NCBI GenBank assembly: GCA_001775055.1
Contig: MFBU01000014.1
Location: 59,833-118,534 of the forward strand
Origin: Candidatus Curtissbacteria bacterium RIFCSPLOWO2_02_41_11
GTDB lineage: Bacteria > Patescibacteriota > Microgenomatia > Curtissbacterales > GWA2-41-24
DNA length: 58,702 bases
Reading direction: 5' to 3'
This document shows, piece by piece, positions 13,771 to 53,893 of the stretch. Under the pieces are notes generated by a model, which made no database searches, had not been told where the DNA came from, and was given only the letters and a program-made list of their open reading frames with translations. Positions within the stretch are counted from its first letter, which is position 1, and each line of letters starts with the position of its first letter. The position numbers and the translations under genes were made by a program.

Positions 13771-13835
13771 ACATCCACTTCCGAGGTGTACTGGGTTTGC
13801 ACATCGGGATTATTCCTCCATTCTCAAATTCTTCC
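13771..13835 (+). repeat. hairpin repeat family H, copy 1
   Basis: acatccacttccgaggtgtactgggtttgcacatcgggattattcctccattctcaaattcttcc. Differs from 14432..14496 at 2 positions. Stem ccgaggtg/cacatcgg. Confidence 0.8.
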
Positions 13836-14431: not shown

Positions 14432-14496
14432 ACATCCACTTCCGAGGTGTACTGAATTTGCACATCGGGATTATTCCTCCATTCTCAAATTCTTCC
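14432..14496 (+). repeat. hairpin repeat family H, copy 2
   Basis: Near-identical to 13771..13835. Lies 73 nt upstream of the start of ORF 14569. Confidence 0.8.
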
Positions 14497-23095: not shown

Positions 23096-23590
23096 GTGCC
23101 ACGAACTGGTAAGGTTGAAAAAAGACAAATTGCGCCAGATCCAATCTATCAAAGTCCTCAAGTTGCCAAGCTTGTTAATAAACTGATGATTTCCGGTAAG
23201 AAAGCTTTGGCGCAAAGAATTATTTATGAAGCTTTTAAATTAATTGCCAAAAAAGATAAAGATCCACTGGCGACATTTGAAAAGGCTCTGGAAAATGTTA
23301 CACCCAAAATGGAAGTTCGGCCAAGAAGAGTCGGTGGAGCTTCTTACATGGTCCCGATGGAAGTTAGAGGTGTCAGAAGAATGTCGCTTGCCATTTCTTG
23401 GTTGGTTGTTGCAGCCAGAAGCCGCACCCCTAGTGAAGTAGAAAAGCTTAAGAATAAACCGCTGATGATTTCTAAACTTACAGCCGAGATTTTAGATGCT
23501 GCCGAAGGCACTGGAAAGGCAGTTGCCAAAAGGGAAGAAATGCACCGCATGGCTGAGGCAAACAAAGCGTTCGCACACTTCAGGTGGTGA
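23096..23590 (+). CDS. rpsG: 30S ribosomal protein S7
   Basis: VPRTGKVEKRQIAPDPIY...MEVRPRRVGGASYMVP...ANKAFAHFRW. GTG 23096 follows gaagggag. The ORF track start at 23036 is probably too early. Confidence 0.95.
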   Translation: MPRTGKVEKRQIAPDPIYQSPQVAKLVNKLMISGKKALAQRIIYEAFKLIAKKDKDPLATFEKALENVTPKMEVRPRRVGGASYMVPMEVRGVRRMSLAISWLVVAARSRTPSEVEKLKNKPLMISKLTAEILDAAEGTGKAVAKREEMHRMAEANKAFAHFRW

Positions 23591-23675: not shown

Positions 23676-23708
23676 GCAAATAAGGCTTTCGCACATTTTC
23701 GTTGGTAA
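23676..23708 (+). pseudogene. relic copy 2 of the rpsG 3' end
   Basis: gca aat aag gct ttc gca cat ttt cgt tgg taa = ANKAFAHFRW*. Identical peptide to the authentic end, with synonymous differences. Confidence 0.8.
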
Positions 23709-23783: not shown

Positions 23784-23810
23784 AAGGCTTTTGCCCACTT
23801 TCGTTGGTAA
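23784..23810 (+). pseudogene. relic copy 3 of the rpsG 3' end
   Basis: aag gct ttt gcc cac ttt cgt tgg taa = KAFAHFRW*. Confidence 0.75.
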
Positions 23811-23921
23811 TAGACTACTCGCCACAAATTCACCCAATGTGCTATAATCTGCGCTTAGTTTTGATTATTGTCAACAAGGCTATTTTTCTGCTTAAATAAA
23901 ATTTGTTAAGGATATTTGAAT

Positions 23922-24215
23922 ATGGTGCAAGCTAAAGCTCAAAAATTAAAACAATTAAAAAACAGGCTCAAAGAGCTTGAAGAAGTCAAGCTCAAAGAGG
24001 CGCTGGCCAAATATGGCGAGGCCTACCAAGAGTCCGGTTCGGCCTGGAATGAAAATGCTGCCTGGGAGCTTGCGGATGAAGAAGTTTCGGTACTTCGTGC
24101 AATGATTACCGAAATCAAAAATGAAATCAGAAATCTTGAGCATCCGGCAATTTCCCAGCTTAACGTTGAACCTCAAACTTCAAAAGCTGGTAAAAAATAT
24201 TCCAATTCCAAATAA
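23922..24215 (+). CDS. small coiled-coil protein resembling the GreA/GreB N-terminal domain only
   Basis: GEAYQESGSAWNENAAWELADEEVSVLRAMITEIKNEI parallels the GreA pattern (..GD..ENAEY.AA.E.Q....I..I). There is no C-terminal domain. aagga SD lies 8 nt before the ATG. TGcTATAAT at 23839..23847 lies upstream. Confidence 0.45.
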   Translation: MVQAKAQKLKQLKNRLKELEEVKLKEALAKYGEAYQESGSAWNENAAWELADEEVSVLRAMITEIKNEIRNLEHPAISQLNVEPQTSKAGKKYSNSK

Positions 24216-28888: not shown

Positions 28889-29182
28889 ATACGAATGTAT
28901 CCTAATTTGATTAGTCCGAATTTATCCTAACATTCGGATTCATTCGGAGTAATTTCATTCGGATAAATTCGTCAATCAGGAGGTATTTGACAAAAACTAA
29001 ATAAACAATTAACCATTAACAATTGACAATTGACATTTGACATTGTTAATCGGTGGGACACCTGAAGACATCTAAGGAGTCCTGCTTTTTTGCTGCTTGA
29101 ATCCGAATTGATCCGAATCAAGTTAATCCAAATTAACTCGAATATTAGGATTTATTAGGAGTAATAATTAGGAAAAATTAGG

Positions 29183-31983: not shown

Positions 31984-32268
31984 ATGAGCAGGTCATCTAA
32001 AAAAGGTCCGTATGTGGACCAGAAATTGTTAAAGAAAGTTTTAGCTCAAAAAGAGTCCGGCAAAAAAGAGCCCATTAAAACTTGGGCTAGAAACAGCCAA
32101 ATTCCGCCGGAATTTGTCAATCATACTTTTTCTGTCCATAACGGCCGGATTTTTATCAATGTTTTTGTCACAGAGCCGATGGTTGGCCACCGACTTGGAG
32201 AATTTGCACCGACAAGAACTTTTCGCGGTCACGGTAAGATTACAGAGAAATCCAGCGCCAAAAAATAG
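31984..32268 (+). CDS. rpsS: 30S ribosomal protein S19
   Basis: [43 protein letters not shown]. Confidence 0.97.
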
Positions 32269-32394
32269 AATGCGAATTTGTACGAATATAATTACACGAA
32301 TAGAAACGAATATTTTAATCAGCGAAGATCAGTCATCAATCCGCGGTAATCAATTGCTGATTAAAAAAACACCAAAAGTCAATCAGGAGGCTGT

Positions 32395-32820
32395 ATGGAA
32401 ATAGTAGCTGTGGCAAAGAATGTACGCATATCACCGCAAAAGGCAAGGCTTGTTGTCGATCAGATCAAAAAAATGGGGCCTCAGGAAGCAATAAAAATGC
32501 TGGATTTTATCCCAAAAGGCGCATCATCAGCCATTAAAAAAATTATTGCGTCCGCAATAGCTAATGCAAAAAATAATTTTGGTTTATCCCAGGACACTTT
32601 GACTTTTAAGGAAATTTCGGTGACAAAGGGGATTGTTTTTAAAAGGTATAGGGCAGTCTCGCGAGGCCGAGTCCATCCAATATTAAAGAGGACAAGCCAC
32701 ATAAAAGTAGTTTTGAAGAGTGAGCAGAAAAAAGAAGTATCACAAAAAGAGGTATCACAAGTATCAAAAGTACCAGAAGTATCAAAGGTGCCAGAGGTTG
32801 AAAAGAAAAATGAAAAATGA
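32395..32820 (+). CDS. rplV: 50S ribosomal protein L22 with repetitive C-terminal tail
   Basis: RISPQKARLVVDQIK, ...SAIANA.NN. The tail is EVSQKEVSQVSKVPEVSKVPEVEKK. Confidence 0.95.
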   Translation: MEIVAVAKNVRISPQKARLVVDQIKKMGPQEAIKMLDFIPKGASSAIKKIIASAIANAKNNFGLSQDTLTFKEISVTKGIVFKRYRAVSRGRVHPILKRTSHIKVVLKSEQKKEVSQKEVSQVSKVPEVSKVPEVEKKNEK

Positions 32821-32924
32821 AAATTTAAAAATATTTTTCAATTACTATTCACTATTTACTCTTTTCGATTCCTCGAAAATACGCTCTCGTATTCACTATT
32901 CACTACCGACCGAATGGAGGTCCT

Positions 32925-33566
32925 GTGGGTCAGAAAGTTAATCCAGTTGGTTTTAGACTTGGTAACCTCTACACTTGGAGCTCGCGCTGGTTTGCGGCTA
33001 AAAACAATCTTTTTGCCGAGTATCTTTTAGAGGACCAAAAAATTAGGAAATTTTTAATGGAGGTTCTTAAGGCGGCAGGTATCTCTAAAGTAGAGATTGA
33101 ACGTTCTTTTGACAAAAGAATTATAACAATTCATGTTTCAAGGCCAGGGGTTGCCATCGGTCGAGGAGGAACCGGACTTGAACAATTAAAAGATGCTTTG
33201 ATGAAAAAATTCAAAATTACTGATTCCGGCAAACTGGACATTAAATTTGAAGAAGTAAAGTCACCTGATTTGGACGCTTATCTTGTGGCAACGAACATTG
33301 CCGACCAACTCGTCAGGCGCATCCCATTTAGAAGAGTGATGAATCAGGCTCTTGAACGAGTCAAAAGATCCGGAGCCAAAGGCGTGAGAATTTCTTTGGC
33401 CGGCAGGCTTGGCGGTTCGGAAATTGCCAGGCGCGAGACAGTCAAAGATGGGTCTATCCCCCTGCAGACATTAAGAGCCCAAATAGATTTTGCCAAGATC
33501 GATGCCAAGGTGCCTAGAGCCGGCATCGTTGGTGTTAAAGTTTGGATAAACAAAGGTGAATCCTAG
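32925..33566 (+). CDS. rpsC: 30S ribosomal protein S3
   Basis: GQKVNPVGFRLG....W.S.WFA, KH-like IERS...I.IH..RPG.AIGRGG. GTG start after ggagg. Confidence 0.97.
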   Translation: MGQKVNPVGFRLGNLYTWSSRWFAAKNNLFAEYLLEDQKIRKFLMEVLKAAGISKVEIERSFDKRIITIHVSRPGVAIGRGGTGLEQLKDALMKKFKITDSGKLDIKFEEVKSPDLDAYLVATNIADQLVRRIPFRRVMNQALERVKRSGAKGVRISLAGRLGGSEIARRETVKDGSIPLQTLRAQIDFAKIDAKVPRAGIVGVKVWINKGES

Positions 33567-35725: not shown

Positions 35726-35911
35726 ATGGCCAAGAAATCAAAAATTGTAAAAAACGAAAAAAAACCAAAGTTTGAAGTAAGACACAGAAATCGCTGTAAG
35801 ATTTGTGGTAGACCTCGAGGTTATTTGCGTAAATTTGGGATTTGCCGGCTTTGTTTTCGCGATCTGGTACATCGGGGTGAAATACCCGGTGTTCAAAAAG
35901 CATCATGGTGA
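35726..35911 (+). CDS. rpsZ: 30S ribosomal protein S14 type Z (zinc-binding)
   Basis: 61 aa. [22 protein letters not shown]. Confidence 0.95.
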
Positions 35912-36013
35912 ACATTAACGAATATAAACGAATAAAATTAAATTTAATATGAACGAATATTCGCACAAATTAGTCAAAATTAGTTTAAATTTGCAAGTAA
36001 CCGGAGGTTACCA

Positions 36014-36409
36014 ATGGATCCTGTAGCTGATATGTTAGTGACAATCAAAAACGGATATATGGCCAAGAAGGCACAAGTAATAATTCCTTATTCAAAGTTT
36101 AAATTTGAAATAGCCAAAATATTAGAAAAAGAACAATTTATTGGTAAGGTTACCAAAAAGGATTCCCGCCTGCCGGCAGGCAAGGCAAAAATCGAAGTGG
36201 AGCTTTTATACGATAAACAAAAGCCTAAAATTTCTGAAATTAAACGTGTTTCAAAATTGGGACTTCGCGTTTACACAAAAGGTAAAAATATCAAAGGTAT
36301 TAAGGGAGGTAAAGGAATAATTATTATTTCAACTCCCAAAGGCGTCATGACGGGAAGCCAGGCAAAAGCTAAAAATCTTGGAGGAGAGGTCATCTGCCAA
36401 GTTTGGTAA
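36014..36409 (+). CDS. rpsH: 30S ribosomal protein S8
   Basis: DPVADMLV.IKNG, ...IIISTPKGVMT...AK..N.GGEV.C.VW. Confidence 0.96.
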   Translation: MDPVADMLVTIKNGYMAKKAQVIIPYSKFKFEIAKILEKEQFIGKVTKKDSRLPAGKAKIEVELLYDKQKPKISEIKRVSKLGLRVYTKGKNIKGIKGGKGIIIISTPKGVMTGSQAKAKNLGGEVICQVW

Positions 36410-36456
36410 AAAATATAAAAATCAAATGATAAACTTAAATTTTAAATCGAAAATTT

Positions 36457-36543
36457 CAAAATTGGATCAGGCTTCGCCTGGACAATTTTGTCCATTAGGG
36501 GAAAGAGAATATTAAGGGAAAACCGTAAGGTTTGCCCTTAAAG
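36457..36543 (+). repeat. two-hairpin intergenic element E, copy 1 (upstream of rplF)
   Basis: caaaattggatcaggcttcgcctggacaattttgtccattaggggaaagagaatattaagggaaaaccgtaaggtttgcccttaaag aligns along its full length with 41049..41137 and 43029..43114. Confidence 0.8.
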
Positions 36544-36551
36544 TCAGTATT

Positions 36552-37103
36552 ATGTCTAAAATCGGTAAACAACCAATAATAATTCCACAAGGCGTAAGTG
36601 TTAATATCATGGACTCTGGGGTAAATGTTTCAGGACCCAAAGGAAATCTTTCTTTTAACTTCAGGCCTGAAATAAAAGTGGAAGTTGAGAATGGGAAAGT
36701 TAAGGTAATTAGAAAAACTGAGAACAAATTCTCCAAATCACTTCACGGTTTAACCAGAAGCATAATTGCTAATATGATCAAAGGAGTAGAAGAGGGTCAC
36801 CAAAAAATTTTGGAGATAGTGGGAGTTGGCTATCGCGCCGCTAAAGAAGGCGATAATTTAGTTTTAAATGTTGGTTATTCTCATCCAGTGGTGATTAAGT
36901 CCATAGCCGGAGTTCAAGTTGAAACCAAAGAAAATAAAATTATCATTTCAGGCGCGGACAAAGTTCTGGTTGGCGAAACGGCAGCAAGAATTAGAAGGGT
37001 TAGACCACCGGAACCTTATAAAGGTAAGGGAATTAAATATGTTGATGAAATTATCAGAAGAAAAGCTGGTAAAACTGTTAAGGCTGTTGGTGGTAATCTA
37101 TGA
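36552..37103 (+). CDS. rplF: 50S ribosomal protein L6
   Basis: SKIGKQPI.IP.GV.V.......V.GPKG.L, VGVGYRA, YSHPV, PEPYKGKGI.Y. Confidence 0.97.
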   Translation: MSKIGKQPIIIPQGVSVNIMDSGVNVSGPKGNLSFNFRPEIKVEVENGKVKVIRKTENKFSKSLHGLTRSIIANMIKGVEEGHQKILEIVGVGYRAAKEGDNLVLNVGYSHPVVIKSIAGVQVETKENKIIISGADKVLVGETAARIRRVRPPEPYKGKGIKYVDEIIRRKAGKTVKAVGGNL

Positions 37104-37465
37104 AAAACAAAAGATTGCAAAGGGTCGCAAGGCATCGAAGAGTCAGAAAAAAAATTAGTGGTACATCCAAGTTACCAAGACTTAGTGTATTTCGGTCAAA
37201 TAAACATATATATGCACAATTAATAGATGATCAAAGCGGTACCACGCTTATCTCGTCAGCGGATTTAAATTTGTCGGTACTTCATAAAAAATCAAAAGAA
37301 AGAATGCAAAGATTGAATACAGCTTTTGAGATTGGCAAGATTTTAGCCCAAAAGGCAATTAAAAAGAATATTAAAAAGATTATTTTTGATAGATCTGGTT
37401 ATAACTACCACGGACGAGTCAAGGCATTTGCCGAAGGCGCAAGAGTTGGGGGATTAAATTTTTAA
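37100..37465 (+). CDS. rplR: 50S ribosomal protein L18
   Basis: RHRRVRKKI.GT...PRLSVFRSNKHIYAQLIDD..G.TL, FDR.GY.YHGRVKA.AEGAR..GL.F. Confidence 0.96.
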   Translation: MKNKRLQRVARHRRVRKKISGTSKLPRLSVFRSNKHIYAQLIDDQSGTTLISSADLNLSVLHKKSKERMQRLNTAFEIGKILAQKAIKKNIKKIIFDRSGYNYHGRVKAFAEGARVGGLNF

Positions 37466-37466
37466 A

Positions 37467-37928
37467 ATGGCAACTACCGAAGAAGTATTTATGGGGCAAG
37501 CAAGAGAGTTTGAGGAAAAAGTCATACAGGTAAACCGTGTTTCCAAGAAAACAAAGGGGGGTAACAAAATTGGATTTTCAGTTCTAATTGTTGTGGGAGA
37601 TAAAAAAGGTCGAGTTGGAGTAGGCTTGGGGAAAGCGCGAGATGTAGCTTCAGCTATTAGAAAAGGGGCCAACTATGCCAAAAAGCACTTAATTAATGTT
37701 CCTATCGTAAAAGGAACAATTCCCCATGATGTTTACCTAAAAAGGGGAGCAGCAAAAATTCTTCTCAAACCGGCACCAGAAGGTTCTGGCATTATTGCTG
37801 GCGGTGCAGTTCGAGCAGTTGTTGAGGCAGCAGGGATTAGAAATATTTCAAGTAAAGTTCTTGGCACTAAAAATAAAGCATCTAATGTCTATGCAACACT
37901 TGAGGCATTGCAAGGATTTATAAAATGA
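37467..37928 (+). CDS. rpsE: 30S ribosomal protein S5
   Basis: [12 protein letters not shown]...F..L.VVGD..GRVG.G.GKA..V..AI.K. Confidence 0.96.
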
Positions 37929-38407
37929 GACTTGATACTTTACCAAAAATTACAACAAAAAGCGCAAAAAGAGTTGGCCGAGGTCACGGGTCTGGCAAGG
38001 GTAAAACAAGTGGGCGTGGGACAAAGGGGCAAAAAGCCAGAGGGAAACTTCCAATCACCCATCCGCATTTTGAAGGCGGCAGTCGACCGCTTATTAAAAG
38101 ACTTCCCATAAGACGAGGCAAGGGCAACCCGAAAATTTCCAAGAAGCCGCTTGTCGTTAATATTGAAGCTTTAAACATTTTGCCCAAATCTGTAGCCCAG
38201 ATTAATCTTGAGACTTTAATTAAATTAGGTATCGTTGATGAGGATGATGCCAAAATTTACGGGGTCAAACTTTTGGGTGATGGTCAGGTTGATAGACCAT
38301 TTACTGTTTATCTCCCTATTTCAAAAAATGCAACCTCGAAAATTGAAAAGTCCGGTGGAAAAATTATCCTAGTTAATAAAATCGAAAGAAAGGCCGAAAA
38401 TAAATGA
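37925..38407 (+). CDS. rplO: 50S ribosomal protein L15
   Basis: [29 protein letters not shown] overlap with rpsE leaves no room for an L30 gene. Confidence 0.96.
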
Positions 38408-39696
38408 ACTATTTTAGAACAATTTTAAAAATATTTGAAATCAGAGATTTAAGAAAACGGATCCTATTCACGTTTTTTATTTTTCTGATTTTTCGAATTT
38501 TTGCTCACATTCCGGTACCAGGCGTTGATATTGCCTCTTTGAAAAGACTTTTTGCCGAAAGTCAGTTGCTTTCACTTTTGGATATTTTTTCCGGCGGAAC
38601 TTTGGCAAATTTTTCTGTAATGTCTCTTGGTTTAAATCCCTATATCAACGCAAGTATTATTATGCAACTCTTGCAAATGGTATTTCCGAAACTGGAGGAA
38701 CTAGCCAAAGAAGGAGAAGCGGGGCGGCAAAAAATTAATCAGTATACTCGTTATTTGACTGTACCTTTAACCACTATTCAAGCTTTTGGAATGTATGTTT
38801 TGCTAAAGAATTCCCAAATAATTTCTCAAGTTAATCCTTTAACTCTTTTGTCTCTTGTTGCCACAATTACCGCTGGAACTATTTTTTTGATGTGGTTAGG
38901 AGAATTAATTTCGGAAAATGGTATTGGCAATGGGATTTCTATGGTGATTTTTGCAGGTATTGTCGGAAGGTTACCGATTGGTTTTGCACAAACAGTATCG
39001 GTTTTTGATCCAACACAGGTCAAAAATATCTTAATCTTTGTGATTATGGCTCTAGTTGTGATTGTTTCTATTGTTGTTGTGACCGAAGCTAGACGTCCTA
39101 TTCAAGTTAATTATTCAAGAAGAACCAGTGGACAAGCAGCGGTTGCTAGTTATATTCCATTTAGGGTTAATCAGGCGGGGGTAATTCCCATTATTTTTGC
39201 TATTTCCCTAATTTTACTGCCGACTACTTTTGCCAGATTTTTTGAAAGATCGCCTAATATACTTATTGCCAATTTAGCACAGGATATACAAAGATTTTTT
39301 TCTCCCCAGGGTGTTTTTTATAATGCAACTTACTTTTTATTGGTTGTTGCTTTTACATATTTTTATACGACGGTTGCCTTTAATACCAAACAAATTTCTG
39401 AAATGCTGATGAAACAAGGCGGTTTCTTGCCGGGAATCCGGCCAGGAAGTCCTACTAAGGCCTTTTTAGATTTCGTTTCTATGCGCGTTACATTTTTTGG
39501 AGCAATATTTTTGGGACTGATTGCTGTACTGCCATCAATCGGTCAGGCTTTTACCGGTATTACAACGCTTTTAATTGGCGGAACCGGGATTCTAATAGTT
39601 GTGGCTGTAGTTCTTGAGACATCCAAACAAGTTGAATCACATTTAGTAATGAGAGATTATGATGCTTTTTTAAGAAAGGGGGCATCAAAAGTTTAG
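38404..39696 (+). CDS. secY: preprotein translocase subunit SecY
   Basis: 430 aa, multi-[53 protein letters not shown]. Confidence 0.97.
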
Positions 39697-39711
39697 CTTT
39701 GGTATTTTTTT

Positions 39712-40263
39712 GTGAAAATAATTTTTTTGGGAAGCCAAGGCTCTGGAAAATCGACTCAGGCGCAACTTGTTGCCAAAAAGCTCAATTTGCCCTGCATTGA
39801 AATGGGTCGGCTTTTTAGAGATAGGGCCAAAGATAAAGATCCGAAAGTACAGGAAATAAAGAGGGCACTTGAGGGCGGTGAGTTAGTGCCAGATGAAATT
39901 GCCGTAAAAAGCTTGAGGGAGAGACTTTTAAAACCCGACTGTGCCAATGGTTATGTATTAGATGGTTATCCCAGAAATTATGCCCAACTTGAAGGTCTTC
40001 AATCCGATATCGATAAAGTCTTCTATATTAAGGTTTCCGATCAAGAAGGTATCAGGCGATTGATTGCAAGAGCCAGGCATGATGACAATCTCTCTATTAT
40101 TACTAGAAGATTACAGATCTATCATCAACAGACCGAACCACTTCTTGTCTATTTTAGGCAAAAAGGGATTCTTGTAGAAATTGATGGAAACCAGAGCATC
40201 GAGGAAGTAGCAGATGATGTTCAAAAGCGTTTAGAAAATGAATTTGACAAAAGACCATCCTAA
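39712..40263 (+). CDS. adk: adenylate kinase (short form)
   Basis: IIFLGSQGSGKSTQA (P-loop), GELVPDEI, YVLDGYPRN. GTG start. Confidence 0.93.
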   Translation: MKIIFLGSQGSGKSTQAQLVAKKLNLPCIEMGRLFRDRAKDKDPKVQEIKRALEGGELVPDEIAVKSLRERLLKPDCANGYVLDGYPRNYAQLEGLQSDIDKVFYIKVSDQEGIRRLIARARHDDNLSIITRRLQIYHQQTEPLLVYFRQKGILVEIDGNQSIEEVADDVQKRLENEFDKRPS

Positions 40264-41008
40264 GTTTGTAAAAAGTGATCAGGAAATAGAGCTTATGAAA
40301 ATATCGGGAAAAATTTGCGCGCAAGTCCTCAAAAAAGTTTTGGAAAATGTCAAGGTCGGTGTTACTTGTTTTACGCTTGATAAAATTGCCAAGCAAGAAA
40401 TTGAAAAGAGAGGAGCATCTTCTTCTTTTATGACGGTCGATGATTACAAATGGACCATTTGTACTACAGTTAACCAGCAGGTTGTTCATGGTATTCCGAA
40501 TAAACAGTCCCTTAAAAATGGCGATATTTTAGGAATTGATATTGGGGCGCTTTACCACGGTTTTCATAGCGACATGGCCATAACCATACCAATTGGTAAG
40601 GTTTCGACAGTTGTAGATAAATTTTTAGCAGAAGGCAAGAAGACTTTAGAAAAAGCCATAAGCTGTGCCAAAATCGGCAATCGGATTGGTGATATCTCGG
40701 CAACTATCCAGCAAGGTGTAGAGAGCGCCGGTTACTCAATTGTTAAAAGCCTGACTGGTCATGGAATCGGTCACGAGCTTCATGAGGAGCCGATGGTGCC
40801 AGGATTTGGCAAAGTGGGAACTGGACCAAAAATTCGGCAAAACATGGTATTGGCAATTGAAGTGATCTATACTCAAGGCTTGGGAGAAGTTAAGTTAGAA
40901 AAGGACAATTGGACAATATCAAGCGTTGATGGTTCATTGGCAGGGTTATTTGAACAGACTGTCTTAATAAACGGAAATGGCCCCATAGTATTGACGCCAT
41001 ACTTATGA
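40238..41008 (+). CDS. map: methionine aminopeptidase type I
   Basis: VKSDQEIELMK.SGKI, HGIP, GDILGIDIG, HSD, GHGIGHELHE.P, LAIEV. Confidence 0.95.
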   Translation: MNLTKDHPKFVKSDQEIELMKISGKICAQVLKKVLENVKVGVTCFTLDKIAKQEIEKRGASSSFMTVDDYKWTICTTVNQQVVHGIPNKQSLKNGDILGIDIGALYHGFHSDMAITIPIGKVSTVVDKFLAEGKKTLEKAISCAKIGNRIGDISATIQQGVESAGYSIVKSLTGHGIGHELHEEPMVPGFGKVGTGPKIRQNMVLAIEVIYTQGLGEVKLEKDNWTISSVDGSLAGLFEQTVLINGNGPIVLTPYL

Positions 41009-41048
41009 TTAGGTACAATATAGTTTTAAGAAAAACATCTCTAGAATT

Positions 41049-41137
41049 AAATTTGAATCGAGCTTCGCTTGTTCAAATTTGTCAATTAAAGGAAAGGGGA
41101 ATATAAAGGGGAAAACCGTTAGGTTGTCCCCTTAAAG
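41049..41137 (+). repeat. two-hairpin intergenic element E, copy 2 (upstream of infA)
   Basis: taaatttgaatcgagcttcgcttgttcaaatttgtcaattaaaggaaaggggaatataaaggggaaaaccgttaggttgtccccttaaag. Ends 1 nt before the infA ATG. Confidence 0.8.
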
Positions 41138-41138
41138 T

Positions 41139-41378
41139 ATGAAACCCGGCGTAATTGAAGTCGAAGGAGAAGTAACCGAGGCGTTACCAAATACTATGTT
41201 TAGGGTTAAGGTAGCCTCTGGTCAACTACCGAATGTTAATGAAGATAAGATTGTTTTATGTCACCTATCCGGCAGAATGAGAATACATTACGTGCGAATA
41301 TTACCCGGTGATAAGGTAAAGTTGGAAATGACGCCATATGATTTAACTAAAGGAAGGATAACTTTTAGGTATCGGTAA
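41139..41378 (+). CDS. infA: translation initiation factor IF-1
   Basis: [18 protein letters not shown]......[10 protein letters not shown]...VRILPGD.V..EMTPYDL.KGRI.FRY. Confidence 0.96.
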
Positions 41379-41389
41379 TAATAACCAAT

Positions 41390-41503
41390 ATGAAAGTTCA
41401 AGCTTCAGTTAAAAAAAGATGCATTAATTGCAAAATTGTTAAAAGAAAAGGCAGATTGTATGTGATCTGTCCTAATCCGCGTCACAAACAGCGACAGGGA
41501 TAA
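41390..41503 (+). CDS. rpmJ: 50S ribosomal protein L36
   Basis: Not in the ORF track (37 aa). Hand translation gives [37 protein letters not shown]. Confidence 0.93.
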
Positions 41504-41504
41504 A

Positions 41505-41933
41505 ATGGCCAGAATTGCAGGAGTGGATTTACCAAACGAAAAAAGAATTGAAGCGGCTCTGCCGTACATTTTCGGTGTTGGGCCAACTTTGGCTAAAAAA
41601 ATTGTTGCTGATTGCAATCTAGACCCTAACATAAGAACCAAAAATTTGAGCGAGGAACAAATTAATAAAATTGCTCGGGCGGTAGAAAAATACAAGGTTG
41701 AAGGAGATTTAAGAAGGGAAATTCAGGGAAATATCAAAAGATTACAAGAAATTGGTAGCTATCGGGGAATTCGACACAGCAAAAACCTGCCGGTAAGGGG
41801 CCAAAGGACAAGAGTTAATGCCAGAACTAAGAGGGGTAAGAGGATTACTATTGGAACAGTCAGAAAAGAGATAGTTGAAAGAACGGGTAAGACTATAGCA
41901 GTAAAGCCCACAAAGGAAGGAACGGCTTCTTAA
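41505..41933 (+). CDS. rpsM: 30S ribosomal protein S13
   Basis: [12 protein letters not shown]...AL.YI.G.G, YRG.RH...[12 protein letters not shown]. Confidence 0.97.
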
Positions 41934-41949
41934 ATAAGCCGTAATCATC

Positions 41950-42363
41950 ATGACACAGAAAATTAAAAAAACAAAAAATCAAGCTATAACCTTGAAAAAA
42001 AAAGCCGTAGATAAAAATATCACCTATGCTAGGGCATATGTAACTGCAACTTTTAATAATACTCTGATTACAATCACCGATACCAATGGTTCAACCGTCG
42101 TTTGGGGTTCAGCAGGCGCATCCGGTTTTAAAGGTGCCAGAAAATCAACTCCTTATGCAGCCACCACTGCCGTTGAAGAAGTTGCCAGAAAGGCTAAAGA
42201 AAAAGGCATTAGCAGCATCGAAGTCTATGTTAAGGGACCTGGTCCGGGAAGAGATGGCGCCATTAGGGCTTTTAAGGCAGCTGGACTTAATATAACGATG
42301 ATTGTTGATGTAACCCCAATTCCGCACAATGGTCCAAGAGCATCAAAAAGGAGGCGTGTCTGA
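41950..42363 (+). CDS. rpsK: 30S ribosomal protein S11
   Basis: A.V.ATFNNT.ITITD..G..V.W.SAG..GFKG.RKSTP.AA, V.GPGPGR..AIRA....[17 protein letters not shown]. Confidence 0.97.
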
Positions 42364-42971
42364 TGGCCAGATATACAGGTGCAAAACATAAACTTTGTAG
42401 GAGAGAAGGGATTGCCCTTTGTGGTTTACCTAAGTGTCCGGTTCTAAGAAAAAATGCCCCGCCACCTGGTCAACATGGTCAAAAAGGGCGCAGAAAACTG
42501 TCGGAATATGGAGTGCAATTAAGAGAGAAACAAAAAGTAAAAAGAATGTATGGACTTTTAGAAAGGCAATTTAAGAAATATTATCAATTGGCATCTGCCC
42601 AACGAAGTTCAACAGGAGAAGCACTTCTTGCACTTTTGGAAAGACGTCTTGATAATGTTGTCTACAGACTTAATCTAGCCAGAAGTCGCGCTCAGGCCAG
42701 GCAATTAGTTTCTCATGGGCACGTTTTTGTTAACGAGAAAAAAATAACTATTCCTTCATATAATGTTAAAATTGGCGATGTTATTTCACTTTCCGCCGAG
42801 ACCGCGAATTTAGACTTTATCAAAAAGCTGACAGAAGAAACTAAGGAGACAAAACTGCCTTCATGGCTTAAGAAGAAAGCGACAGTCGGTAAAATTGAAT
42901 CTTTGCCCAAGCGAGAAGAATTTGATGTCGACATTAATGAAAGATTAATTGTTGAGTATTACTCAAGGTAG
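42363..42971 (+). CDS. rpsD: 30S ribosomal protein S4
   Basis: MARYTG.K.KL.RREG, S.YG.QLREKQK.KR.YG..E.QF..Y, RLDNVVYRL..A.SR.QARQLV.HGH..VN. Confidence 0.97.
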   Translation: MARYTGAKHKLCRREGIALCGLPKCPVLRKNAPPPGQHGQKGRRKLSEYGVQLREKQKVKRMYGLLERQFKKYYQLASAQRSSTGEALLALLERRLDNVVYRLNLARSRAQARQLVSHGHVFVNEKKITIPSYNVKIGDVISLSAETANLDFIKKLTEETKETKLPSWLKKKATVGKIESLPKREEFDVDINERLIVEYYSR

Positions 42972-43028
42972 CTAGAAATGCCCAAGGGCTAAACGACTAA
43001 TGACTAATGCAATAAGGAATATAAAATC

Positions 43029-43114
43029 CAAAATTAGATCTCGCTTAGCCAGTCTAATTTTGTCCATTAAAGGAAGAGGAATACTAAGGGGAAACCTTTG
43101 GTGTCCCCTTAGAG
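43029..43114 (+). repeat. two-hairpin intergenic element E, copy 3 (upstream of rpoA)
   Basis: caaaattagatctcgcttagccagtctaattttgtccattaaaggaagaggaatactaaggggaaacctttggtgtccccttagag. Confidence 0.8.
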
Positions 43115-43134
43115 TCTAAAAGGAGGTGAAATAA

Positions 43135-44055
43135 ATGCTTGATTTATCACTTATTGAAGTTAAAACAGAGAAAGAGACACAAGATTTTGGCAAATTTATT
43201 ATAGAACCACTGGATCAAGGTTATGGCCATACCATCGGTAATTCTTTAAGAAGAGTTCTTTTGACCTCTCTATCTGGTGCGGCTATCACCCAACTTAAAA
43301 TTTCAGGTGTTCGTCATCAGTTTACATCTCTGTCTGGCATGACCGAGGACATTGTCGAATTTATCCTCAATCTTAAAAAAGTAAGATTGATAGTCTCATC
43401 TGACAAACCGGTTAAATTAACTCTCGATGTCAAAGGGCTCAAAGAAGTTAAGGCAAAAGATATAGAGAAAGCTGCTGGTGTTGAAATTATTAATGCGGAT
43501 TTGATACTGGCTCATCTTGCTGATTCAAAATCAAAATTAACAGCACATTTAATAGCTGAAAATGGAACAGGTTATTCTTTGGCCGAAGAAAGAAGGAGCG
43601 GTGAAATTGGCGTTATCCCCATTGATGCAAATTTTTCACCTGTTGTCAGTGTTAATTATAAAGTAGAGGCTACTCGTGTCGGCAGGTTGACAAATTATGA
43701 CAAATTAACACTTGAAGTAACAACTGATGGAACTATCAAACCATCTCAAGCCGTAAAACAAGCGGCGAAAATATTGGTTGATCACTTTTCGATAATTCAC
43801 CAACCACCAGTTGCAGGTAAACGCCAGAAAGTAGCTGAAAAAACACCAATCTCTGATGATCTCTTGAAGACTTCACTTGAAGAATTAGATTTGCCGGTAA
43901 GACTAACCAACAGTTTGAAGTCTGGAAAAGTTGAAACAATTGGAGATTTTCTAGCCAAGGACAGAAAAGATCTACTTAAAATGAAGAATATGGGACCAAA
44001 ATCAATTAATTTAGTTGAAGAAAAATTAAAAGAGAAAGGAATAAGTGTAAAGTGA
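43135..44055 (+). CDS. rpoA: DNA-directed RNA polymerase subunit alpha
   Basis: G.F.IEPL..GYGHT.GNSLRRVLL.SL.GAA, C-terminal LEELDLPVRLTNSLK....ETIGD. Confidence 0.97.
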   Translation: MLDLSLIEVKTEKETQDFGKFIIEPLDQGYGHTIGNSLRRVLLTSLSGAAITQLKISGVRHQFTSLSGMTEDIVEFILNLKKVRLIVSSDKPVKLTLDVKGLKEVKAKDIEKAAGVEIINADLILAHLADSKSKLTAHLIAENGTGYSLAEERRSGEIGVIPIDANFSPVVSVNYKVEATRVGRLTNYDKLTLEVTTDGTIKPSQAVKQAAKILVDHFSIIHQPPVAGKRQKVAEKTPISDDLLKTSLEELDLPVRLTNSLKSGKVETIGDFLAKDRKDLLKMKNMGPKSINLVEEKLKEKGISVK

Positions 44056-46310: not shown

Positions 46311-47302
46311 GTAATTAGATCGTGGACACCTTGTACTTCTGTAAATACTCCTCAGGTGTATCAAAATTGAGTGAGTAATGCAACCGTTCGCTATTGTAGT
46401 AGTCGGTCCACTCCTCCAAAGCAGTATTCAGTTCTTCCAGCGTAAGATCTCTGGTATCCACCAGATTGTAGAATTCATCATCGTCAGTCTTGTGCGATCT
46501 CTCAACACAGCCGTTCTGGTCGGGAGTATGGATCCAGGTATACTGATGGGCGATATTTTTGCCTTCAAGGTACTTTAAGGGTTCTGTCTGGAACTCCAAA
46601 CCATTGTCAGTCTGTATTCTTTGGGTGTTGATGCCCTTTTTAACAGCATGCGTTAAAAGTTTCTCCAAGAAGTCAACTGTACTTTGGGCGCCAATCTGAC
46701 TGTAGGCGCGGATATATCGCCATTTGGAAACCACATCAATGGCTGTATACTGATACCTTTTCCTGCCGTCCAGGAATTTAGTATCAATCTGCACCAGCTC
46801 TCCAGGCACAGAAGCATGATTGAAAAGCCTGGTGGCTCGTCGCTTCCTTCTGTGCCTCTTGATAATCAAACCGCGTTTCTTCCACCAGTTGTAGATAGTC
46901 TTTGGCGAGCATGGAGGAACTCTACCTTCCTTTAGCCACAGCTGATACAGATAGTAGTGGCTCTTGGCAGGATGATCCCTCTTCCACTGGCAAGATCTCA
47001 ACCACAACCTGCCATGGTATTGTCCTTGTGGACTTTGGCCGTCTTGATCTTGTCTTGATGGTGGTTAAGTTGTATCTTTTGTACCTTTTCTTCCACTTGT
47101 AGAAGGTTGATTTACCAATGCTCATCAGTCTGCATAAATACCTGACGTTGACCTTACCATCCCTTCGCATCATCTCGTAAGCATCCATAACCTTAAGTCT
47201 TAGGAGCTCACCAGCATCAAGGTCTACATTGTGTATTCTCAATCGAAAACACCTCCTTTCCCAGAAGATATTCTAGTTAAGAAGTGTCCACGATGTGTTT
47301 AC
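46311..47302 (-). mobile_element. insertion sequence with DDE (rve-type) transposase, IS481/IS3-like, frameshifted
   Basis: Terminal inverted repeats gtaa..a.atcgtggacac at 46311..46329 and 47284..47302 (reverse complement). GTACGA occurs on both flanks (possible target duplication). The transposase is split into ORFs 46922..47242 and 46315..47007. Confidence 0.8.
46315..47242 (-). pseudogene. DDE transposase interrupted by a frameshift near 46.95-47.0 kb
   Basis: N-terminal HTH part (SIGKSTFYKWKKRY) is in one frame. The catalytic part (GELVQIDTK, YQYTAIDVVSKW, TDNGLEF, HTPDQNGCVERSH) is in another. Confidence 0.75.
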
Positions 47303-47770: not shown

Positions 47771-47808
47771 ATCACTTCCGATTTGGACTAGCTTTGCACA
47801 TCGGGAAT
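47771..47808 (+). repeat. hairpin repeat family H, copy 3
   Basis: atcacttccgatttggactagctttgcacatcgggaat. Stem ccgatttg/cacatcgg. The upstream tatcacagaa also matches the flank of copy 1. Confidence 0.65.
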
Positions 47809-50093: not shown

Positions 50094-50110
50094 TATATGT
50101 CTCCTATCAA

Positions 50111-50146
50111 ACCCGGTGTGTATTAGCTTGACACATCGGGAATATT
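50111..50146 (+). repeat. hairpin repeat family H, copy 4 (immediately 3' of tRNA-Pro on the minus strand)
   Basis: Stem cccggtgtg (50112..50120) / cacatcggg (50132..50140), 9 bp including one G-U, with an 11-nt loop. Confidence 0.65.
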
Positions 50147-50149
50147 AAG

Positions 50150-50223
50150 TCGGGGTGGGCGGACTTGAACCGCCGACTTCCAGACCCCCAGCCTGGCGTT
50201 CTAGCCAACTGAACTACACCCCG
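50150..50223 (-). tRNA. tRNA-Pro (anticodon GGG)
   Basis: The reverse complement CGGGGTG-TA-GTTC-AGTTGGCTA-GAAC-G-CCAGG-CTGGGGG-TCTGG-AAGTC-GGCGG-TTCAAGT-CCGCC-CACCCCG-A folds as a cloverleaf. Anticodon loop C-U-GGG-G-G. Confidence 0.9.
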
Positions 50224-53775: not shown

Positions 53776-53893
53776 AATTAGGCTCCCTGCCTAACTTCAT
53801 TTGACAATTATCTTTTTTAAGATATAATTCTGGTTATTGAAACAATCATTCGGATAAATTCGGATTAATCCATTCGGATAAATTAGGATACAT

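Follow-up and report, generated by a model that had tools for sequence, protein, structure and literature searches.

Three copies of a two-hairpin element in a ribosomal-protein operon

The window, a 58.7-kb stretch of DNA from a Candidatus Curtissbacteria (CPR) genome, contains a ribosomal-protein operon that holds three copies of an element of approximately 90-110 bases with two hairpins. The full copies (n = 3) span positions 36455-36546, 41046-41140 and 43027-43117. They lie in the spacers between the genes for S8 and L6 (copy 1), Map and InfA (copy 2) and S4 and RpoA (copy 3), and their parts are listed in Table 1. The elements are real: alignment, repeat search and a covariance model all recover them where a preliminary description of this DNA had placed them, and its assignment of the downstream genes to rplF/L6, infA and rpoA was right. 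The three copies align over about 92 nt with a mean column identity of 84%, and among the direct repeats of the window they rank first (family D1; ungapped identity 65-77%). Moreover, a window scan finds the core string TTTGTCMATTARRGGAA with 0 mismatches exclusively at these three sites. A covariance model built from the three copies scores those same copies at E = 6e-21 to 5e-18 and detects no further copy on the + strand of the 58.7-kb window.

Both hairpins fold in 3/3 copies, with whole-element z-scores of -3.0 to -4.4. Folded alone, hairpin 1 reaches -9.9 to -14 kcal/mol and hairpin 2 -14.9 to -17.4 kcal/mol. The paired changes between copies in hairpin 1 are as described before, and so are the A.G mismatch of hairpin 2 and the joint change of its arms (GGG/CCC vs GGGG/CCCC). 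The loop of hairpin 1, however, comprises 3 nt (TTC, TTC and TTA) closed by a G-C pair, and not the 5 nt described before. Finally, a GGAGG-type Shine-Dalgarno (SD) sequence is present at RpoA and at neighbouring genes in the window, whereas L6 and InfA have none of their own; in line with the description, the element carries SD-like purine runs.

Table 1. Parts of the three copies of the element and of their flanks (positions are those of the window).
Feature	Position	Strand	Remarks
Copy 1, -10-like boxes 5' of hairpin 1	36427-36435; 36449-36454	+	TGATAAACT and GAAAAT, respectively; weak match to the family TAnAAT box at the same position
Copy 1, hairpin 1 (S8/L6 spacer)	36457-36490	+	-14 kcal/mol; covariation
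Copy 1, linker TCC and purine box	36491-36511	+	TCCATTAGGGGAAAGAGAATA; read from the sequence and the three-copy alignment
Copy 1, hairpin 2	36512-36541	+	UUAAGGG-A-AAACC / GGUUU-G-CCCUUAA; -14.9 kcal/mol; outer pair covaries family-wide
Copy 1, AAGT tail, 7 nt, rplF (L6) start	36542-36554	+	ATG at 36552; no SD
Copy 2, upstream promoter-like sites	40991-41047	+	TTGACG-17-TACAAT (40991-41019) across the Map stop codon; TAGAAT (41042-41047) adjoining hairpin 1
Copy 2, hairpin 1 (Map/InfA spacer)	41048-41081	+	-11.8 kcal/mol
Copy 2, linker and purine box	41082-41105	+	TCAATTAAAGGAAAGGGGAATATA; homologous to the SD region GGGAAAGGGGAAATTATG of the hairpin-2-less L012 InfA
Copy 2, hairpin 2	41106-41133	+	-17.0 kcal/mol
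Copy 2, AAAGT, infA start	41134-41141	+	ATG at 41139, immediately after AAAGT; no SD
Copy 3, promoter-like site adjoining hairpin 1	43000-43027	+	ATGACT-16-TAAAAT; promoter scan 9/12
Copy 3, hairpin 1 (S4/RpoA spacer)	43029-43062	+	-9.9 kcal/mol
Copy 3, linker and purine box	43063-43083	+	TCCATTAAAGGAAGAGGAATA; three-copy alignment
Copy 3, hairpin 2	43084-43112	+	CUAAGGGG../..CCCCUUAG; -17.4 kcal/mol; outer C-G for U-A; covariation
Copy 3, AGT, 6 nt, rpoA SD and start	43113-43137	+	rpoA's own SD GGAGG (43122-43126), ATG at 43135; L012 and L185 laid out alike

The element is a family with covarying stems

The preliminary description had proposed a search beyond the window and an analysis of covariation. 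A metagenome pattern scan found at least 113 stretches with the pattern of the element; among the matches listed there are approximately 50 distinct full-length copies (>55 bits) and 79 distinct sequences. A covariance-model search of Rfam returned no family match, in line with the earlier remark that the element resembles no known ribosomal-protein leader. The element is thus a large family, absent from Rfam, in Curtissbacteria-like (CPR) bacteria. Its consensus order is a TAnAAT box, hairpin 1, TCC, the purine box AAGGGAAAGGGAA, hairpin 2, AAAGT, approximately 6 nt and the start of the downstream unit. Hairpin 1 is A/T-rich and has approximately 15 bp, with a conserved apex (AUCUGGC-UUU-GCCAG) that includes a bulged U. 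Hairpin 2 consists of 12 pairs and one A.G mismatch (UUAAGGGAAAACC / GGUUUGCCCUUAA). The purine box, predicted to be single-stranded, contains three GGA/GGG motifs, and its positions -8..-1 before GAATA are conserved family-wide even though they lie outside the search pattern.

Computed on an alignment that had not been fitted to the structure, 91.3% of the cells are paired, compared to 79.2% in shuffles, and 19 of the 28 pairs show double changes (160 cells vs 51 in shuffles). None of 500 shuffles reaches the observed values, and slid controls are 29-59% paired. Compensatory changes across the family support both predicted hairpins. The stem of hairpin 2 is constant at 13 positions and followed by a conserved unpaired A; its loop varies from 3 to 8 nt, and in L139 a 40-nt insertion into the loop leaves the stem intact, which points to a folded hairpin and not to a dimer operator. 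Very few of the pairs are G-U (about 1% of cells), and the stems pair equally well on both strands (94% paired; 8-17 G-U pairs antisense vs 10-13 sense). This is unusual for selection on the sense RNA only and fits a DNA-level or strictly Watson-Crick constraint. The modules also occur apart: hairpin 1 can stand by itself, and the purine box with hairpin 2 can stand without it. Hairpin 1 followed by AAUUUUGU appears terminator-like in a scan.

Position relative to downstream genes

Every copy with an identifiable downstream gene is co-oriented with it and ends 3-28 nt before its start. Many copies lie 3-17 nt 5' of ribosomal-protein genes that have no other SD. The SD-less genes behind the element are those for L6, InfA, S4, S12, S7, S8, S19, L3, L16, L20, L36, EF-Tu and SecY. 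Their starts are found 4-17 nt past hairpin 2, most frequently at 9-10 nt, and are not preceded by GGAGG, which other genes of the same genomes do have. In total, the family precedes more than 15 different ribosomal-protein genes as well as EF-Tu, IF1, SecY, RpoA, AtpE and HrcA, and its copies are concentrated at the genes with the highest expression. Moreover, it precedes tRNAs, tmRNA and unidentified structured RNAs, and is not specific to the ribosomal-protein operon.

This range of targets bears on the idea of a regulator, either an autoregulatory leader for ribosomal proteins or a riboswitch-like attenuator that senses a ligand or a protein. One factor would bind either at the apex of hairpin 1 or at the purine box and thereby control how strongly translation genes are expressed. 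The conservation of both these sites, the terminator-like hairpin 1 with its downstream sequence and the presence of copies in ribosomal-protein operons are compatible with it. However, known autoregulatory leaders mimic the rRNA site of one protein and occupy one operon position, whereas here the same element stands before many different units. It also has neither a multi-helix junction nor a pocket-like architecture and matches no leader or riboswitch of Rfam. We consider such a regulator highly improbable.

The occupied junctions vary between species. The S8/L6 and S4/RpoA spacers are filled in the window but measure just 6-16 nt in L011, where L6 begins 6 nt past the S8 stop, and in L012 copies precede SecY, S4 and RpoA. 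Such differences between close species, together with the separate occurrence of the modules, could indicate a selfish repeat of the MITE, REP or BOX type that spread through intergenic spacers and affects expression only incidentally; a MITE-like insertion had indeed been considered in the preliminary description. In GC-richer genomes the module is, furthermore, flanked by a tRNA gene and by a second copy of that tRNA's 3' end, with presence/absence differences among related genomes, and Watson-Crick-only changes in the arms would be compatible with templated mutation from one arm to the other in DNA palindromes. Against this, Curtissbacteria-type copies show neither end-joining terminal inverted repeats nor a target-site duplication, and paralogues within a genome are just 65-77% alike in hairpin 1, while orthologous copies are conserved (InfA between the window, L011 and L132; L6 between the window, L140 and L197). 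The fixed orientation and distance, the enrichment at highly expressed genes and the fact that the element replaces the SD of essential genes also argue against a mobile origin, which we therefore regard as very unlikely.

The majority of copies are intercistronic or lie between stable RNA genes, and functional starts cluster 3-12 nt past hairpin 2 in coding and non-coding RNAs alike. Together with the constant stem of hairpin 2, its variable loops and the unpaired A behind it, this could suggest a processing ('punctuation') signal: an endonuclease would cut beside hairpin 2 and release the downstream mRNA, tRNA or tmRNA, with a short or absent leader, from a polycistronic precursor. The cut could be made, for example, by RNase P or RNase Z, which would recognise the 12-13-bp helix as a mimic of a tRNA acceptor/T-arm minihelix, or by a single-strand nuclease guided by the hairpin. 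tRNAs and tmRNA are substrates of RNase P, which is in favour of this reading. There is, however, no CCA-like tail, the conserved purine box and hairpin 1 would be left unexplained, and (near-)leaderless translation of ribosomal-protein mRNAs in a genome that uses SD sequences would itself need explaining. A processing signal of this kind seems improbable.

Candidate promoters and transcription starts

According to the preliminary description, the element contains a block that resembles a sigma70 promoter, with TTGTC(C/A) as the -35 and TATTAA, TATAAA or TACTAA as the -10 box, and might serve as an internal-promoter or translational-control unit. It is reasonable to connect the element with the start of transcription or translation, but the promoter is not supported as drawn. 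The proposed -10 box lies in the stem of hairpin 2, where it covaries with the bases of the 3' arm (TAcTAAGGGG..CCCCTTAg; TACCAAGGGG..CCCCTTGG). Not one of more than 100 copies has a T at the last position of the hexamer, which is rejected by a promoter scan, and the proposed -35 box is family-wide just TTnTCC. A better -10 candidate is the position-fixed TAnAAT box found 1-3 nt 5' of hairpin 1. In about half of 50 copies the box is canonical and ends 1-2 nt before hairpin 1; most of the others have near-matches. Copies at the head of S12 operons have an additional perfect TGATATAAT 9-27 nt further upstream. In copy 2, the TTGACG-17-TACAAT site scores 10/12 in the promoter scan, and a TGnTAnAAT-type box past the Map stop is kept in L011, L012, L013 and L132. 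Finally, the gene upstream of the L101 copy is divergent, so transcription of this copy requires a promoter of its own.

The main alternative, which we judge rather unlikely, is that the element is a strong promoter that is active as duplex DNA and serves highly expressed genes and stable RNAs. Transcription could then start within the 5' arm of hairpin 2 (from TTGTCC-N16-TATTAA, or with AATATT as the -10 box), or approximately 7 nt past TAAAGT, which would yield leaderless mRNAs and stable RNAs that begin at or near their mature 5' ends. The hairpins would be by-products, would form in read-through RNA only or would be extruded as DNA, and looping out of hairpin 2 would produce a correctly spaced TTGTCC-N16-TA/AAGT. 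The constant spacing of 16-18 nt between TTnTCC and TATTAA, the stems that are equally good on both strands and almost free of G-U pairs, and the mixture of downstream mRNAs, tRNA, tmRNA and other structured RNAs are in line with this. The same is true for the GC-richer genomes, where the module is the sole A/T-rich island 5' of the downstream RNA, and for the absence of an SD, which would fit leaderless mRNA. Moreover, the functional unit starts 5-7 nt past the T of TAAAGT in approximately 24 of 42 cases, be it with AUG, with the GGAGG of RpoA and AtpE (6 nt), with G1 of tmRNA (6 and 5 nt) or with G1 of one tRNA (5 nt). Starts at this distance would be expected if a -10 box lay at the 3' end of hairpin 2, and they count against an element that acts as RNA.

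However, the conserved TATTAA has the wrong sixth base in all copies, and its third base follows the 3' arm, TACCAA going with CCCCTTGG. Since the loops differ in length by 5 nt (by 40 nt in L139), no -35 box can lie at a fixed distance from TAAAGT. For InfA (0 nt past AAAGT), L16 and L36 (3 nt each), one tRNA (L135) and others, the start lies 0-4 nt past the hexamer, which is too close. A start site 3' of hairpin 2 cannot serve InfA, L16 and L36, and their RNA must begin upstream. In the hairpin-2-less InfA and L16 copies of L012 there is no space for such a promoter, and still their purine box stays at SD distance. Finally, adjacent genes such as those for S12 and S7 each have a copy, approximately 0.5 kb apart, and most copies are intercistronic. 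To our knowledge, cruciform-dependent promoters for cellular RNA polymerase are very rare.

A proposed gene-head cassette with a candidate split ribosome-binding site

The AAGGGG in the 5' arm of hairpin 2, previously suggested to be a sequestered SD, is 27-37 nt from the AUG and hence too far. The purine box is the better candidate, since copies that lack hairpin 2 hold it 5-6 nt from the AUG (L012 InfA, GGGAAAGGGGAAATT-ATG; L012 L16, TATTAAGGGAAAGGGAAAGTT-ATG); InfA of L013 reads TAAGGGGACACAT-ATG. Moreover, because L6 of L011 begins directly behind S8 without the element, a copy inserted at this junction had to bring its own initiation signal.

The element is most likely a portable "start-of-gene" signal, placed directly before highly expressed genes, tRNAs and tmRNA. 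As to how it works, we tentatively favour a transcribed gene-head cassette that joins a -10 box of its own to a structured leader and to a purine box acting as a ribosome-binding site bridged across hairpin 2. Each copy would be a self-contained unit that begins with the sigma70-type -10 box (TAnAAT). It would be transcribed from this box and, inside operons, also by read-through, and would act mainly as RNA. For genes without another SD the purine box would provide a Shine-Dalgarno-type site, and hairpin 2 would fold away the approximately 30 nt between this site and the AUG, resulting in a split ribosome-binding site. The two hairpins may jointly insulate or stabilise the new 5' region. Before tRNAs and tmRNA, the cassette would serve as promoter and leader, the latter being removed by RNase P. 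What the sequences show directly is the anatomy and conservation of the parts, the covariation of the stems, their placement and orientation towards starts, the missing second SD and the occupancy that varies between species; the transcription start, the SD function of the purine box in copies with hairpin 2, the bridging and the stabilisation are inferred.

Further observations do not fit the cassette RNA easily. A start 7 nt past TAnAAT would fall within the 5' arm of hairpin 1, whose outer pairs also covary. The bridged path from SD to AUG, ignoring the helix, amounts to 4 + 3-16 nt, typically about 13, and is longer than the 5-6 nt of the hairpin-2-less copies. Finally, the purine box is equally conserved before tRNA and tmRNA, where ribosome binding is not needed.

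Comparison with known systems

Rfam contains ribosomal-protein leaders for S10, L4, S4, S8/spc, L20 and others, and such leaders were reportedly treated by Eckert and Weinberg in 2020. Like these, the cassette is a structured non-coding sequence in or ahead of ribosomal-protein operons, but it gives no covariance-model match and is not bound to one protein, to one operon or even to ribosomal-protein genes. The boxB-boxA antitermination leaders of rrn and lambda and the two-hairpin put RNA of HK022 are promoter-proximal RNAs of highly expressed, partly untranslated units. The cassette shares their layout of hairpin, conserved linear block and hairpin; its purine box, however, does not resemble boxA in sequence.

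Correia (CREE) repeats of Neisseria and BOX/REP elements are short, hairpin-forming, partly modular intergenic repeats of strain-variable occupancy, which are co-transcribed with their neighbours and can act as a source of promoters or affect how stable an mRNA is. The cassette resembles them in size, hairpins, modularity and variable occupancy. Unlike them, it has no terminal inverted repeats, TA duplication or near-identical copies, has a strict orientation and spacing relative to the downstream start and replaces the SD of essential genes. Gram-positive 5' stabilisers comprise 5'-terminal stem-loops and the STAB-SD of cryIIIA. By analogy, a hairpin near the 5' end and an SD-like sequence 5' of the real start could protect the mRNA from 5'-end-dependent decay, although these stabilisers are single-gene leaders and the cassette is a repeated family.

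In genes 38 and 25 of phage T4, a hairpin between SD and AUG restores functional spacing, folding reducing the effective distance from 22 to 5 nt and from 27 to 11 nt (PMC3014915). The cassette differs from these genes in that it recurs at many genes, including those for tRNA and tmRNA, and in that it also contains a -10 box and another hairpin; the flanks of its predicted hairpin 2 total approximately 8-20 nt. As in the T4 genes, however, a stable local hairpin stands between an SD-type purine run and the AUG, in front of a gene that has no SD at the normal distance.

A two-hairpin cassette recurs before genes of the ribosomal cluster

The window carries rpoB, rpoC and the genes for S12, S7, EF-G and EF-Tu, followed by the S10-spc-alpha ribosomal cluster, from which the L30 gene is absent. 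Three copies of a two-hairpin cassette form its strongest repeat family, and the positions assigned to them in the preliminary description proved exact when read from the window sequence. Each copy folds as two hairpins, well above shuffled controls. The core string matches only these three copies in the window, and two covariance models found no further + strand copies there. Identical copies of the locus are contained in Rifle aquifer assemblies. The element had been said to match no known ribosomal-protein leader. This agrees with an Rfam search at gathering and relaxed thresholds, which returned nothing for it: over the window there was only tRNA elsewhere, and in the element region only noise (E > 1). 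Nor was the element described in the literature searched, which covered the motif string, CPR promoters and Curtissbacteria leaders.

Positions and contexts of the cassette copies and of other features (L-numbers are handles of comparison sequences from related genomes and metagenomes; L011 and L012 are species representatives)
Feature	Sequence	Position (strand)	Context	Detail
Cassette copy 1	window	36457-36543	S8/L6	spacer 142 nt
Cassette copy 2	window	41049-41137	Map/InfA	spacer 130 nt
Cassette copy 3	window	43029-43114	S4/RpoA	spacer 163 nt
Terminator-like apex	window	36467-36481	copy 1	plus ACAATTTTGT
Full cassette copy	L012		L15/SecY	
Short hairpin 1, then core and hairpin 2	L012		S11/S4	
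Core and hairpin 2	L012		S4/RpoA	
Hairpin 1 alone	L012		S3/L16	
Weak cassette match	L012		Map/InfA	~20 bits
Copy with hairpin 2 lost	L012		InfA	GGGAAAGGGGAAATT-ATG
Copy with hairpin 2 lost	L012		L16	TATTAAGGGAAAGGGAAAGTT-ATG
Sequence before the start	L013		InfA	TAAGGGGACACAT-ATG
Purine box and hairpin 2	L139	2330-3230 (-)	3' of tRNA gene	
tRNA region compared	L164	7120-8140	tRNA-Leu/tRNA-Val spacer	
Cassette, then GACCCC..GGGGTC hairpin	L101	8492-8620	no gene	
Cassette, then GACCCC..GGGGTC hairpin	L115		no gene	
Cassette, then GACCCC..GGGGTC hairpin	L165	2540-2690 (-)	no gene	
S7 gene 3' end, three times	window	23564-23590, 23682-23708, 23784-23810	within 250 nt	..KAFAHFRW stop
Coiled-coil ORF	window	23913-24215	S7/EF-G spacer	~100 aa
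Repeat family D7	window	28889-29182	S10/L3 spacer	ATTCGGAT/TCCGAAT
Repeat family D7	window	53836-53869		
34-nt repeat, four times	window	13776-13809, 14437-14470, 47773-47806, 50108-50141		CACTTCCGAGGTGTACTG..TTTGCACATCGGGA
tRNA	window	50150-50223 (-)		
rve integrase gene	window	46315-47007		
Long A/T-rich spacers	window	32266-32397, 32818-32927, 35909-36016		

Relatives of its SecY assign the window to Candidatus Curtissbacteria (Microgenomates, CPR), and the closest species representatives by SecY identity are L011 (86%) and L012 (80%). A covariance model built from the three window copies found one copy in L011, at Map/InfA only, the S8/L6 and S4/RpoA spacers of this species being just 6-16 nt long. 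In L012 it found four to five copies, full or partial, at a set of junctions other than the window's, and in the remaining 78 species representatives none. A scan of public metagenomes with the pattern GAATAYWAAGGGRAA-N8-16-CCCTTA yielded at least 113 stretches; among the matches listed, the covariance model scored at least about 50 full-length copies at more than 55 bits and recognised at least 79 distinct sequences. Fifty distinct copies with their flanks, aligned by MAFFT, give the consensus (T)AAAAT-C, hairpin 1 (AAATTTGnATCTGGC TTT GCCAGTnCAAATTT), nTCCAnT and the purine box region AAGGGAAAGGGAATA, followed by hairpin 2 (TTAAGGGAAAACC Gn TA GGTTTnCCCTTAA), AGTAAAnAnn and ATG.

Orthologous copies are alike (InfA in the window, L011 and L132; L6 in the window, L140 and L197), and paralogous copies inside one genome have diverged to 65-77% likeness. 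The family is therefore old and vertically kept, with gains and losses at single junctions; those of S12, S7, EF-Tu and L3 are empty in the window species and occupied in other genomes. As judged from the sequences, the spread of the cassette is not due to a recent transposition burst. The earlier suggestion of a MITE-like insertion has to be given up: the ends are not complementary, no direct repeat flanks the element, each hairpin is a self-contained palindrome, paralogues are not near-identical, and copies with a recognisable downstream gene share its orientation. That the cassette is a selfish repeat is quite improbable.

Complementarity in the hairpins is conserved on both strands

Covariation was assessed on the MAFFT alignment, which is not fitted to structure, with 500 shuffles as controls. 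Paired cells amount to 91.3% vs 79.2% in shuffles, and two-sided changes are found in 19 of 28 pairs and 160 cells, vs 51 cells in shuffles. None of the 500 shuffles equalled the observed pairing or double-change values, pairing falls to 29-59% when the partner is slid by 1-3 columns, and the model-fitted alignment gives an agreeing picture. Thus, the compensatory base-pair changes first noticed between the window copies are supported beyond both kinds of control.

Of hairpin 1, only the apex (AUCUGGC-UUU-GCCAG) and a bulged U are constrained in sequence. A terminator scan listed only the apex of window copy 1; in the hairpin-1 consensus, 2-3 A's lie between the stem and the U's, which pair with the 5' A-run. 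Hairpin 2 is almost invariant; its outer U-A pair is replaced by C-G in 9 of 50 copies, two C-G pairs are present in a single copy (TACCAAGGGG..CCCCTTGG), and one lineage has a GGAG/CTCC variant. Its loop measures 3-8 nt, and one copy carries a 40-nt insertion inside it, on which grounds a dimeric operator at hairpin 2 was dropped. Two further proposals were also abandoned: pairing of the purine box with the hairpin-2 3' arm, which shows no covariation, and a resemblance between hairpin 2 and 16S helix 45 plus 3' tail, which is superficial. Speculatively, the mirror repeat AAAGGGAA-TATT-AAGGGAAA might form a purine-motif triple helix; AAGGGAA is its own mirror image, and mirror and direct repeat are separable in one lineage only (GGAG/CTCC with GAGGAA).

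G-U pairs are nearly absent (~1% of cells), and the reverse-complement alignment pairs equally well (94.0%; 8-17 G-U pairs antisense vs 10-13 sense). Neither tolerance of G-U nor better pairing on the sense strand was found. The constraint is thus one of plain Watson-Crick complementarity on both strands, a pattern that selection on sense RNA only does not usually leave behind, and this symmetry argues for a promoter acting at the DNA level.

A -10-like box precedes hairpin 1

The preliminary description had listed a promoter-like block, TTGTCC-N16/17-TATTAA, between the hairpins. Its -10 hexamer (TATTAA, TATAAA or TACTAA) is not upheld: it belongs to the hairpin-2 stem and covaries with the 3' arm, it ends in A, never in T, both in the three window copies and in every family member seen, and the promoter scan rejects it. 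Only TTnTCC of the -35 persists across the family, its T's belonging to the hairpin-1 3' arm; the two hexamers stay 16-18 nt apart. About 25 of 50 copies have another hexamer (TAAAAT, TATAAT, TACAAT or TAGAAT) that stops 1-2 nt short of hairpin 1, the others having mostly near-matches; these counts, like the distances to starts below, are approximate, having been read off alignment A5 by eye. With A2 and T6 conserved and its position fixed, this TAnAAT box has the marks of a sigma70 -10. The scan also reports TTGACG-17-TACAAT before window copy 2, the -10 region of which is kept as TGnTAnAAT in four species with or without the cassette, and ATGACT-16-TAAAAT before copy 3. At S12, the copies are preceded, at a distance of 9-27 nt, by an additional perfect TGATATAAT. 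Searches for RNA runs containing the loci tried returned none.

The hairpin-2 3' end overlaps yet another hexamer resembling a -10, TAAAGT. Of 42 cases, about 24 have the functional start (AUG, GGAGG, tmRNA G1 or, once, tRNA G1) 5-7 nt past this hexamer, and eight, including window InfA, have it 0-4 nt past. This 5-7-nt rule and the association with stable RNAs join the strand symmetry in favour of a DNA-level promoter, our main rival explanation, which we regard as possible if rather doubtful. Promoters of other kinds were dropped: sigma54, as the GG-N10-GC spacing is absent, and a sigma28-like TAAG-N15-GCCCTTAA and an ECF-like GAAAAC/CGT, as their spacing changes with loop length.

The purine box is a candidate ribosome-binding site

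All copies with a recognisable downstream gene are co-oriented with it and end shortly before its start. According to a script-computed table of ORFs and starts, an ATG follows hairpin 2 by 4-17 nt (mode 9-10) in genes for ribosomal proteins (L6, S4, S12, S7, S8, S19, L3, L16, L20 and L36), InfA, EF-Tu, SecY, HrcA-like and FtsE-like proteins, and in some unnamed genes. GGAGG is absent from all of these; RpoA, AtpE and L14 retain their own, 4-7 nt after AAAGT. The cassette also abuts tRNA genes (L135, L097/L202, L183, L131) and tmRNA (L105; L191 by sequence), and stands ahead of further structured sequences. With at least 15 ribosomal-protein genes, tRNA, tmRNA, AtpE, SecY and an HrcA-like gene behind it, it is not tied to the operon or position of one protein, and an autoregulatory leader is highly improbable. 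An RNA processing signal is distinctly unlikely. Copies are mostly intercistronic, those of S12 stand at the operon head, and the gene upstream of the L101 copy is divergent, so that read-through cannot reach this copy.

In two L012 copies without hairpin 2, a gap of 5-6 nt separates purine box and AUG. Together with InfA of L013, they indicate that the box behaves as the Shine-Dalgarno sequence (SD) of the clade for those genes and has to be part of their mRNA. In copies that keep hairpin 2, it stands between box and AUG, giving the layout of a split ribosome-binding site: an upstream SD-like run, a stable intervening hairpin and no SD at normal distance. The flanks around hairpin 2 sum to 4 + 3-16 nt, typically ~13, from box to AUG. 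Since in L011 the L6 gene starts 6 nt after S8 and lacks an SD of its own, the window S8/L6 cassette must itself supply initiation. The hairpin-2 5' arm, previously considered as a possible sequestered SD, lies 27-37 nt from the AUG and was dropped in this role.

Tentatively, we favour as the most probable explanation a portable gene-head cassette that would be transcribed and act as a structured leader. The TAnAAT box would provide its own transcription, the purine box would be the ribosome-binding site, bridged across hairpin 2, and the hairpins would insulate or stabilise the 5' region. A wider proposal, which we consider unlikely, is that in Microgenomates-type CPR one universal module heads the top-expressed units (among them ribosomal-protein cistrons, EF-Tu, tRNAs, tmRNA and small RNAs), replacing promoter and SD. 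The hairpin system may then act as punctuation, setting the 5' ends of leaderless or hairpin-bridged mRNAs and of stable RNAs alike. Alternatively, the promoter may depend on extrusion, the -35/-10 spacing TTGTCC-N16-TA|AAGT being correct only with hairpin 2 extruded from the DNA, which would account for the Watson-Crick-only, strand-symmetric covariation.

Related modules and other repeats

In GC-richer genomes, such as L139, purine box and hairpin 2 occur directly 3' of tRNA genes, with a second hairpin-2-like hairpin (TAAGGGGAAAgattgTTTCCCCTTA) ahead and AGGAGCGA after. Behind it, the 3' end of the same tRNA is repeated from the T-loop on, together with as much as 75 nt of flank. The arrangement resembles an att-type duplication caused by a very small integrated element or what remains of one. 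In the related genome L164, only 60 nt separate tRNA-Leu and tRNA-Val, so that the insert is absent there. In L101, L115 and L165, a conserved TACTGGCCAGTACCTTAACTGAAAGGGCTT and another hairpin lie beyond the GACCCC..GGGGTC hairpin. This sequence, for which Rfam gave no match, may be a small RNA of ~110 nt or a terminator plus regulatory site. Several ORF-free stretches, conserved and structured, come after the module in L091, L114, L136, L145, L171 and L192; in L108 and L130; and in L107, L164, L178 and L182. They include aacaaatTTGGGCGAATAGCCCGCC..., a ~100-nt long hairpin (aaaacgttcggac...gcccgaacgtttt) and CCTGAGCACGGCnCTGTTTTACnAGnGnnAGCGGAnGG, upstream of ThrRS, which suggested SRP RNA. 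None has an Rfam match at E <= 0.05, and an identity as SRP RNA of the sequence after some GC-rich copies is left without support.

In the window itself, the S7/EF-G spacer, downstream of the tripled S7 3' end, measures 780 nt. D7 repeats, both direct and inverted, crowd the S10/L3 spacer and are also present in the L36/S13 spacer of L012. The S10/L3 spacer further contains a block (CGGTGGGACACCTGAAGACATCTAAGGAGTCC) conserved upstream of L3 in L094, and may form a distinct leader for L3/L4. One 34-nt repeat (50108) lies 8 nt past a tRNA 3' end and flanks, with that at 47773, 2.3 kb of small ORFs and an HNH/NUMOD3 endonuclease. The long A/T-rich spacers, also found in L011 and L012, consist of short tandem and inverted repeats (CGAATAT, TTCACTA, CACTGAA, CAAATTT/GAAATT) immediately before a normal GGAGG, and such ribosomal-cluster spacers differ wholly between these close species.

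Discussion

To our knowledge, almost nothing is known about how transcription and translation start in CPR/Patescibacteria, because nearly all are uncultured. A module of ~50-110 nt with more than 100 natural variants, strong structural support and a fixed position before ribosomal-protein genes, EF-Tu, tRNAs and tmRNA therefore offers a handle on CPR gene expression. Genetic tools yet to be developed might use it as a strong expression cassette, and it could mark gene starts and small RNA genes when metagenome-assembled genomes are annotated. It further shows that the 'universal' S10-spc-alpha cluster is divided into different units among closely related species.

Finally, the cassette may represent a natural, large-scale case of hairpin-bridged ribosome binding or of structure-dependent start-site definition. 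It shares the order of SD, hairpin and AUG with genes 38 and 25 of phage T4, where this layout was demonstrated experimentally (PMC3014915), whereas for the cassette it is read from sequence.
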